From an uncultured Candidatus Saccharibacteria bacterium (GTDB lineage Bacteria; Patescibacteriota; Doudnabacteria; UBA920), in the NCBI GenBank assembly GCA_964474825.1, contig CAYYWQ010000001.1:964048-1028047 (forward strand): a DNA stretch of 64,000 nt, written 5' to 3'. A program made the translations under genes and the position numbers. Below, one piece after another: positions 38,582 to 39,274 of this stretch. Under the pieces are notes generated by a model. It saw only the letters and a list, made by a program, of their open reading frames with translations. It was not told the origin of the DNA and made no database searches. Positions within the stretch are counted from its first letter, which is position 1, and each line of letters begins with the position of its first letter.

Positions 38582-39274
38582 ATGAGATACGAAAAAGAAC
38601 AAGCAATAAAATTGCGCTTACAGGGCAGAAGCTATTTGGAAATAAACCGCCTTTTAAAAATTCCTAAAAGTACTCTTTCAGGCTGGTTAAAAAATTTATC
38701 TATATCAGATGAAGCGAAAAACAAAATATTAAAAAGAGGGAGAGCTGCTGCTATAGAAGCGTTATTGAAAAGAAATAAACAACAAACTCAAATTGCACAG
38801 CAGCGGGCTCATCAAATCAGAACAGAAGCGCACCGACAAATAGGAAAAATCAATAATAAAGAACTGTTTTTTACTGGGATCGCGTTATATTGGGCAGAAG
38901 GACACAAAAAACCAATTATTTATAAAGGACAACAAAAAACTTATCACCCGGTCAGACTAAGCAATGCCGACCCAAAGCTAGTACAAATTTTCTTGCGTTT
39001 TTTAAGAGAAAGCTGCGGTGTTGAGAATGAAAAAATATCCGCAGGGTTAAGGATTTTTCAGCATCAAAATGCTGAAAGGCTCTTGCAATTTTGGCATAAA
39101 ACAACTAAAATACCTATTAGTAAATTCCATAAATTTTACTACGGAATAAGCAAGTCCAGCCTAGGCAAAAAACCCTATAATCTTCTACCTTACGGTACAA
39201 TCCAAATTATTGTAAATGACACGAAACTTTACCATAAGATCATGGGTTGGATTGAAGGACTAAGCAAAAATTAA
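38582..39274 (+). CDS. HTH-containing protein with degenerate LAGLIDADG-like core; possible free-standing homing endonuclease
   Basis: N-terminal HTH (RSYLEINRLLKIPKSTLSGWLKNL). The segment NKELFFTGIALYWAEGHKK resembles the LAGLIDADG helix (compare I-CreI NKEFLLYLAGFVDGDGS). Sits between the intron-containing tRNA-Phe and tRNA-Gly. The ATG at 38582 is preferred over the ORF-track TTG at 38519, which lies inside a hairpin. Confidence 0.4.
   Translation: MRYEKEQAIKLRLQGRSYLEINRLLKIPKSTLSGWLKNLSISDEAKNKILKRGRAAAIEALLKRNKQQTQIAQQRAHQIRTEAHRQIGKINNKELFFTGIALYWAEGHKKPIIYKGQQKTYHPVRLSNADPKLVQIFLRFLRESCGVENEKISAGLRIFQHQNAERLLQFWHKTTKIPISKFHKFYYGISKSSLGKKPYNLLPYGTIQIIVNDTKLYHKIMGWIEGLSKN

Follow-up and report, generated by a model that had tools for sequence, protein, structure and literature searches.

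The DNA analyzed here (hereafter the window) is a stretch of 64,000 nt from contig CAYYWQ010000001.1 (assembly GCA_964474825.1; positions 964,048–1,028,047, forward strand), and our subject is an open reading frame (ORF) that lies in it between two tRNA genes; all features of the window described below are on the forward strand unless stated otherwise. The ORF (38582–39274) runs from an ATG at 38582 to a TAA at 39272–39274, comprises 230 codons plus the stop, and encodes a helix-turn-helix (HTH) and LAGLIDADG-like protein of the subfamily that accompanies tRNA-Phe. It begins 80 nt after a tRNA-Phe gene interrupted by an intron and ends 5 nt before tRNA-Gly(GCC) (39280–39353; ARAGORN and Rfam), a downstream neighbor that is kept in the clade; an earlier note on this DNA had given the same boundaries and distances, and our coordinates agree with it. 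A longer ORF starting at TTG 38519 is possible on paper; it is unlikely to be the true form because the MR(x)DK position is the start in all homologues and because a near-consensus promoter lies downstream of the TTG. On the upstream side, tRNA-Val(TAC) (37977–38053; ARAGORN; Rfam tRNA, 75.8 bits) opens a conserved cluster of the order Val-Phe-ORF-Gly, and the same tRNA-Val neighbor is found at L001, L003, L004, L007–L010, L074 and other loci (L-numbers denote homologous or comparison loci from the genome and metagenome collections that we searched).

The tRNA-Phe(GAA) gene (38196–38501) has an encoded CCA and was recovered by ARAGORN with introns allowed. A default ARAGORN run gives no tRNA-Phe at 38196–38501, so that a genome annotated by standard means would seem to lack tRNA-Phe, and the same annotation problem has been reported for tRNA-Asn and tRNA-Asp (PMC13011429). 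The 5′ exon (38196–38227), which extends to U33 and ends in GCCCU, and the 3′ exon (38459–38501) were delimited by ARAGORN with introns and by reading of the sequence; between them, inserted between U33 and G34 at the 33/34 position of the anticodon loop, lies a 231-nt group I intron without an ORF (38228–38458), which matches Rfam Intron_gpI (RF00028) with 76.1 bits (E = 8e-19; gathering score 50). As we read the sequence, the intron start GAAUCUUUGGGGC pairs as P1 (GCCCU/GGGGC, with a U.G pair), the last base of the intron is G, and the 3′ exon start GAAGAGGCGA restores the anticodon loop CUGAAGA. At the DNA level the anticodon arm, TCGCC-CTGAAGA-GGCGA, forms a 17-bp pseudo-palindrome whose center is 1–2 nt from the intron site. 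The same 33/34 intron of tRNA-Phe is listed in the supplement of PMC13011429 for GCA_016699995.1, which is L001 of our locus set.

The AlphaFold2 (AF2) model of the protein is confident (predicted local distance difference test, pLDDT, 88.9; 40-sequence alignment) and shows a three-helix HTH (residues 3–35; 38588–38686), a single long helix (residues 43–86; 38708–38839; pLDDT 86–97) and a compact α/β domain (residues 92–229; 38855–39268). The HTH, whose helices span residues 3–13, 18–25 and 29–35, resembles HTH_23 and the PAI subdomain of Sleeping Beauty. The earlier note had described an N-terminal HTH, and the assignment is solid at the level of the family: the window protein taken alone reaches HTH_23 (E = 0.001), HTH_28 and HTH_SB of Pfam at E values of about 1e-3, below threshold, whereas HTH_23 matches 89 of 101 family members with a best E of 9e-09, and a search of the PDB with the family profile finds the Sleeping Beauty PAI subdomain (E = 1.6e-4). 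The long helix joins the HTH to the C-terminal domain and may act as a spacer or as a dimerization element.

The most telling feature of the C-terminal domain is the motif G-I-A-L-Y-W-A-E-G (residues 99–107; 38876–38902; E106 is encoded by 38897–38899), which is part of the sequence NKELFFTGIALYWAEGHKK at residues 92–110. Among 101 diverse relatives, G99, L102, Y103, W104, E106 and G107 show either no variation or a conservation of at least 90%; E106-G107 is invariant in all 106 family ORFs that were extracted, paralogues included; and residue 101 is small in all members, giving the pattern G99-x-[A/S/G/T]101-L-Y-W-[A/G]-E106-G107. No other feature of the superfamily is as conserved as GxxLY[WL][AG]EG, which reads AGLMLYLGEGDKK in distant paralogues. 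Both alignment and reading place the motif in the same register as LAGFVDGDG of I-CreI, with E106 standing where LAGLIDADG enzymes have their catalytic Asp/Glu, which makes it a putative catalytic residue; judged by the pattern of conservation, the resemblance to LAGLIDADG is not due to chance. The AF2 model has the order α-β-β-α-β-[inserted helix and loop]-β-α, so the α-β-β-α-β-β-α core that defines the LAGLIDADG fold, and that the earlier note had suggested looking for by structure prediction, is present in the predicted structure, with an insertion of 47 residues. Taken together, we consider it likely that the protein contains a divergent LAGLIDADG-like domain that has retained a putative active-site acid.

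The earlier note had also allowed for an unrelated HTH regulator, and this alternative found no support: no unrelated regulator family in Pfam, NCBIfam, PHROGs or PADLOC matches the C-terminal domain. Indeed, residues 90–230 have no match of any kind in these four libraries, which return HTH matches only, and the C-terminal domain is consequently left without a family name. Neither of the two outcomes that the earlier note had named as contrary to its proposal, a confident match to an unrelated regulator family and a predicted structure devoid of a LAGLIDADG-like fold, was obtained.

The family is large and for the most part unannotated. We found >500 relatives at 55–68% identity, all from Patescibacteria metagenomes and almost all without a protein name; family members otherwise carry the annotation “hypothetical protein” and in some cases “transposase-like”. 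The GTDB species-representative collection (185,579 species) holds 434 stretches that encode a relative, and a profile search of 1.84 billion cluster representatives (clusters at 50% identity) returned 5,047 clusters at E ≤ 1e-3 and 2,776 at E ≤ 1e-10, nearly all of 220–235 aa. A phage origin was considered and rejected, as a single relative was found among 2.9 million viral contigs; that lone relative (L087, 594–1354; IMG/VR) starts 1 nt after a tRNA-Glu(TTC), and its contig may be a misclassified Patescibacteria fragment.

The position of the gene beside tRNA-Phe is kept across hundreds of species, which bears out the earlier note's description of a free-standing gene next to the intron-containing tRNA. 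We scored the best 80 of the 434 GTDB stretches, using ARAGORN with introns allowed; five of the 80 loci end at a contig edge on the relevant side, leaving 75 that are informative, and in 75 of 75 the ORF lies 10–216 nt from tRNA-Phe(GAA) (two of the adjoining tRNAs are mis-typed by ARAGORN yet have tRNA-Phe exons). Three arrangements occur, with outer neighbors that vary: tRNA-Phe followed by the ORF on the same strand, as in the window; an inverted tRNA-Phe upstream of the ORF; and the ORF followed by tRNA-Phe. Three homologues on long contigs have the same core of tRNA-Val, intron-bearing tRNA-Phe, ORF and tRNA-Gly in surroundings that otherwise differ. The adjacency to tRNA-Phe is therefore strict and is kept through local rearrangements. 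At the 11 loci with inverted tRNA-Phe (L012, L019, L027, L031, L035, L038, L047, L053, L057, L071 and L078), the inverted unit is the tRNA-Phe with its intron (~0.3 kb); as the order from the ORF to tRNA-Gly is kept in 8 of the 11, a very local inversion beside the ORF is suggested.

Paralogues of the ORF adjoin other tRNA genes: tRNA-Val(TAC) in L047 and L041, tRNA-Val(GAC) in L074 and L019, tRNA-Ile(TAT) in L099, tRNA-Arg(TCG) in L047 and tRNA-Glu(TTC) in L087. The subfamily represented by L190, which has its own set of >500 relatives, adjoins tRNA-Ile(GAT), followed by tRNA-Ala, in 5 of 5 loci (L190 and four contigs with unrelated flanks); the ORF stops at points that range from 10 nt within tRNA-Ile(GAT) to 17 nt short of it, and at L210 (2684–2693) and L190 (6943–6952) the last 10 nt of the ORF, stop included, overlap the start of the tRNA. 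At L041 (2068–3779) a single intron-less tRNA-Phe is flanked by two family members, in the order tRNA-Val(TAC), a 220-aa paralogue (35% identical), tRNA-Phe, a 230-aa orthologue and tRNA-Gly. The window itself contains no further paralogue of the ORF and no LAGLIDADG_3 gene.

A second family of free-standing genes is tRNA-adjacent in the same genomes. Its proteins of ~217 aa match Pfam LAGLIDADG_3 and have >2,000 relatives; copies are found at L001 (2797–3444, reverse strand), L106 (8661–9323), L078 (354–1085), L022 (2–400), L008 (4932–5612), L088 (72–749) and L099 (12207–13020), the last of these decayed and broken into three frames. The genes immediately precede tRNA-Leu(GAG), tRNA-Leu(TAA) or a tRNA-Asp that has an intron. 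That a canonical LAGLIDADG_3 family has the same tRNA-adjacent habit fits a homing interpretation.

The ORF and the intron both gather at tRNA-Phe, yet each can occur without the other. A homologous intron of 196–439 nt is present at the same 33/34 site in 63 of the 75 ORF-bearing tRNA-Phe loci, and the tRNA-Phe is uninterrupted in the remaining 12; intron-less and intron-bearing loci are interleaved in a neighbor-joining tree of the proteins. Starting from the intron, we scanned metagenomes with a pattern for the generic group I core; of the 120 loci obtained, 16 have the intron in tRNA-Phe, and the ORF adjoins 11 of the 14 that are informative on both sides but is absent from L172, L116 and L197. 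At 36 loci with introns in tRNA-Thr, tRNA-Asn, tRNA-Asp, tRNA-Gln or an unassigned tRNA (one ARAGORN “Stop” call), no family member was found. All four combinations of presence and absence of the two elements thus exist, and, with paralogues standing beside intron-less tRNAs as well, the gene does not co-occur obligatorily with an interrupted allele: the linkage is to the tRNA-Phe gene and not to the intron. The earlier note had connected the ORF with the neighboring intron through collaborative homing; the adjacency to tRNA-Phe stands, whereas the tie to the intron does not hold in general, which makes strict collaborative homing one possible sub-case.

Two of the comparison loci may bear on a turnover of the gene. 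L172 (7357–7990) is an empty site with the arrangement of the window minus the ORF, tRNA-Leu(GAG), tRNA-Val(TAC), tRNA-Phe with a 224-nt intron, a 70-nt interval and tRNA-Gly(GCC); its closest ORF-bearing relative is L074, with 77% nucleotide identity. At L050 (551–1342) the tRNA-Phe-linked ORF is split by a frameshift into 551–1177 and 1181–1342 and represents either a decaying copy or an assembly error.

Several signals suggest that the ORF and tRNA-Gly are transcribed together as a short unit whose mRNA has next to no leader. A hairpin (38501–38539; 14-nt arms, 93% complementary, then a T-rich run; repeat search), with a visible counterpart at 3931–3960 of L004, follows tRNA-Phe and is likely to be a terminator or processing site. 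A predicted promoter for the ORF, TTGACA-17 nt-TATACT (38541–38569; 11 of 12 consensus matches in a promoter scan), ends 12 nt upstream of the ATG and implies a very short leader or none; the ORF is thus a stand-alone gene, intergenic beside a conserved gene and with its own predicted promoter. Beyond tRNA-Gly, a stem-loop read from the sequence (aatgcctgacc/ggtcgggcatt with a T-run; 39360–39395) would serve as an intrinsic terminator; it is not among the calls of the consensus scan, and sub-threshold Rfam leader and small-RNA matches at 39275–39393 are a reflection of it. A −10-like box 6–12 nt upstream of the ATG recurs at many homologous loci, and in many family genes an extended −10 box (TGnTAYRnT) ends 6–8 nt before the ATG, which implies leaderless mRNAs. 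The −10 box of the window promoter is spanned by an 8-bp inverted repeat (ACTATACT/AGTATAGT), and in some of L081, L084, L201, L011 and L045 an inverted repeat TTGAACC...GGTTCAA brackets the promoter of the family gene.

The 142-nt spacer between tRNA-Val and tRNA-Phe (38054–38195) is GC-rich and strongly structured (minimum free energy −60.9 kcal/mol, z −5.3), and is a repeated structured tRNA-trailer element: related copies at 20909–21044 and 17666–17709 (reverse strand) lie directly after tRNA-Ala(CGC), with 70% identity over 139 nt, and between tRNA-Pro and tRNA-Ala(GGC). The corresponding spacer is much shorter in other genomes (about 10–130 nt, mostly <70).

Our results lead us to lean towards the view that these proteins form a new LAGLIDADG-like family whose members are free-standing, carry a single motif and would act as homing endonucleases on tRNA genes; the tRNA-Phe intron may serve as their partner in collaborative homing. 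A nuclease-type predicted fold, a retained acid at the catalytic position, an additional DNA-binding domain, strict tRNA adjacency, subfamily-specific tRNAs and empty sites all point in this direction. The tRNA-Phe gene would be both the genomic home and the probable target of the protein. A single-motif enzyme is expected to act as a homodimer on a pseudo-palindrome; the protein may thus dimerize through its LAGLIDADG-like helix and recognize conserved, partly palindromic DNA of tRNA-Phe, for which the anticodon arm TCGCC-CTGAAGA-GGCGA is a candidate. Alleles without the element would be cut, and recombinational repair from an ORF-bearing donor would copy the ORF, plus the adjacent intron if present, into the cut genome. 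Where the 33/34 intron is present, it would split the site and protect the host, as in collaborative homing; ORF-bearing genomes without the intron might be protected by sequence differences in or near the tRNA. Expression would proceed from the gene's own strong promoter, giving a nearly leaderless mRNA whose 3′ end is the co-transcribed tRNA-Gly. It is tempting to extend this scheme to the entire superfamily, such that each subfamily recognizes, by sequence, a single tRNA gene (that of Phe, Ile, Val, Arg, Glu or another) and its members are active endonucleases that drive tRNA-intron mobility by collaborative homing at tRNA-Phe 33/34; we put this wider version forward tentatively and regard it as doubtful.

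A number of observations weigh against the homing endonuclease interpretation, starting with the assignment of the fold, for which the evidence is predicted and the scores are modest to moderate. The earlier note had noticed a resemblance to the LAGLIDADG motif and had proposed a profile search; the motif and its invariant acidic residue are borne out, but no LAGLIDADG profile hidden Markov model matches the window protein or the 101 members, and by profile the protein belongs to no curated LAGLIDADG family. LAGLIDADG models are absent for the window protein and among the 25 families most often matched by the 101 members (E ≤ 1); PF00961, PF03161, PF14528 and PF14527 do not detect the family; and the one faint match to a LAGLIDADG model (E = 0.027) comes from a fused relative of 576 aa. 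Foldseek finds no LAGLIDADG protein in the PDB with the AF2 model as query, and searches of PDB sequences with the single protein and two profiles return HTH proteins only, plus I-DmoI at E 0.18. An hhalign comparison of the family with a LAGLIDADG_3 alignment (35 sequences) covers 40 columns in the correct register, pairing the motif helix and the next strand-helix (vxFtNSDPxmI with HINFTSKDxEL of LAGLIDADG_3); its P value of 0.015 (probability 3%) is not significant, and neither is the comparison with one LAGLIDADG_3 protein, in which the register is also right. Moreover, the 47-residue insertion of a helix and loop between β3 and β4 of the predicted domain is non-canonical. The patterns of inheritance pose a further difficulty: all 80 of the best loci carry full-length ORFs (41–68% identity) and the arrangement classes are largely monophyletic in the neighbor-joining protein tree, a pattern that prolonged vertical descent with purifying selection explains no less well than mobility does. 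No near-identical copies in different contexts or hosts occur among the >500 relatives, and among genome pairs that differ in the presence of the ORF we found none that are closely related (77% nucleotide identity at best), most copies of the ORF being intact. Divergence of the ORF relative to that of its neighbors (59% identity with the syntenic L004, against 79% for Prs and 59% for RNHCP; 57% with L001, against 55% for a DHH protein) is uninformative and supports no claim of horizontal transfer. Finally, the 12 ORF-bearing loci with an uninterrupted tRNA-Phe mean that protection by the intron cannot be the general mechanism of immunity.

The main rival explanation is that the protein no longer cuts: a domesticated DNA binder of the WhiA type, built on a LAGLIDADG-derived scaffold with an HTH, would control transcription of the adjacent tRNA operon by binding at the tRNA-Phe locus or at its own promoter, with one subfamily for each tRNA locus. 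In WhiA itself, the HTH lies at the C-terminus, after two degenerate LAGLIDADG domains, and the catalytic acids have been lost; the window family differs in that its HTH is N-terminal, its LAGLIDADG-like domain is single and its Glu is invariant, and PF14527 and PF02650 match neither the window protein nor the 101 members. The good conservation of the family, its full length at the examined loci and the way in which the arrangements track the protein tree are in keeping with such a role, and the inverted repeats at the promoters (TTGAACC...GGTTCAA, and the 8-bp repeat of the window) are of a kind that an autoregulatory operator would have. The enrichment of palindromes upstream of the ATG is weak, however (stem of at least 6 bp in 15%, as compared with 5% of shuffles), and we do not build on this possible operator. 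What speaks against a binder without nuclease function is that the catalytic position is occupied by Glu-Gly without exception (106 of 106 members); in addition, the gene is optional, being absent from L172, L116 and L197 and represented by 434 stretches in a collection of 185,579 species, whereas one would look for a more even presence in a core regulator. We consider this explanation unlikely, though it is the strongest competitor.

A protein encoded beside its own substrate could also be a maturase-like RNA cofactor that aids the folding or splicing of the tRNA-Phe group I intron. LAGLIDADG maturases are known, for example I-AniI and the bI3 maturase, and their precedent is organellar; the intron is present in 63 of the 75 ORF-bearing loci, and the family is absent beside 36 other tRNA introns. 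However, the ORF is intact at the 12 loci with an intron-less tRNA-Phe, and subfamilies stand beside intron-less tRNA-Ile, tRNA-Val, tRNA-Arg and tRNA-Glu; three intron-bearing loci do without the ORF, the group I introns in Patescibacteria tRNAs need no protein to splice themselves in vitro (PMC13011429), and neither the HTH nor the invariant Glu at the catalytic position would be needed, all of which makes a maturase very improbable. Scarcely better placed, and in our view improbable as well, is a small mobile or integrative element of some other type, which would have a transposase-like HTH protein and enter beside tRNA genes by a route different from homing, or a neutral passenger in the tolerant tRNA-cluster sites of a streamlined genome. 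The N-terminal domain does resemble the HTHs of IS630/Tc1, IS3 and IS1 transposases, some sources label members “transposase-like”, and tRNA genes are classical integration sites. Yet Pfam and NCBIfam scans reveal no catalytic transposase or integrase domain, the whole insert is a single gene of 0.7 kb (L172 compared with L074), and a passenger in a “safe haven” leaves unexplained why each subfamily keeps the identity of one tRNA through rearrangements. There is also no room for terminal repeats where the stop lies 5 nt from tRNA-Gly and where the ORF of the Ile subfamily overlaps its tRNA; an insertion sequence was rejected on this ground, terminal repeats being absent.

If the homing endonuclease interpretation is correct, this would be the first cellular homing system that targets tRNA genes, and it would supply the missing mobility engine of the ORF-less tRNA introns of Patescibacteria. 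These introns have been described as mostly lacking endonucleases and hence as rarely transferred and largely immobile, their retention in tiny genomes needing another explanation; in that study endonuclease genes were sought only inside introns >500 bp (PMC13011429). A conserved endonuclease-like gene that hundreds of species carry immediately beyond the intron-bearing tRNA-Phe is a testable candidate for the spread and persistence of the intron, and a confirmed role would overturn the inference of immobility. Proteins of ~230 aa with an apparent one-to-one specificity for tRNA genes would likewise be a new natural set of sequence-specific DNA recognizers. An HTH joined to a single LAGLIDADG-like domain is a new architecture, which current profile libraries leave as “hypothetical protein”. 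No tRNA-flanking family of this kind is described in PMC13011429, in PMC11270868 or in the literature that we searched on free-standing endonucleases and tRNA and on LAGLIDADG proteins of Patescibacteria; within that literature, the family and its tRNA linkage appear to be undescribed.

The closest known systems in terms of the protein are the single-motif, homodimeric enzymes I-CreI, I-CeuI, I-MsoI and I-ShaI. In common with these, the window protein has one LAGLIDADG-type helix that ends in an acidic residue and Gly, a predicted α-β-β-α-β-β-α core, and a domain of ~140 residues, which implies a dimer and a pseudo-palindromic target; it differs in not being encoded in an intron, in its added N-terminal HTH and 44-residue helix, in a motif that reads LYWAEG in place of LAGLIDADG, and in the β3–β4 insertion. 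I-ShaI, like the window family, occurs in Patescibacteria, and the single-domain LAGLIDADG enzymes of rRNA insertions in the candidate phyla radiation (CPR), I-ShaI among them, are active homodimers (PMC11270868).

In terms of genomic organization, the closest parallels come from phage, where free-standing endonucleases are known to home both collaboratively and without an intron: such enzymes cut alleles of a neighboring conserved sequence that lack the homing endonuclease gene, and repair copies the gene in (PMC3984707). F-CphI with the psbA intron of cyanophage, and MobE with the I-TevIII-defective nrdB intron of T4, each place a free-standing endonuclease gene beside a gene whose group I intron is ORF-less or endonuclease-defective, and there too the intron could shield the allele of its host and undergo co-conversion, as we propose here. 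Those are phage genes, and the enzymes are HNH (mobE) or belong to a different family, whereas the present system combines a cellular genome, a tRNA target and a LAGLIDADG-like fold; furthermore, ORFs of the window type persist beside intron-less tRNA-Phe, so that the partnership is facultative. SegB of phage T4 is also encoded by a free-standing homing endonuclease gene among tRNA genes; it is a GIY-YIG enzyme of a phage and, unlike the present family, is not known to show the pattern of one subfamily per tRNA. Brok-Volchanskaya et al. in 2008 are said to have found that SegB promotes the inheritance of the tRNA region by cutting that region in related genomes. SegB and tRNA loci are also the subject of PMC13096335. 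Measured against these systems, and with the 33/34 intron itself already on record, the window protein would be classed as a predicted free-standing LAGLIDADG-type homing endonuclease with a new architecture, in a new host setting and with a new class of target.

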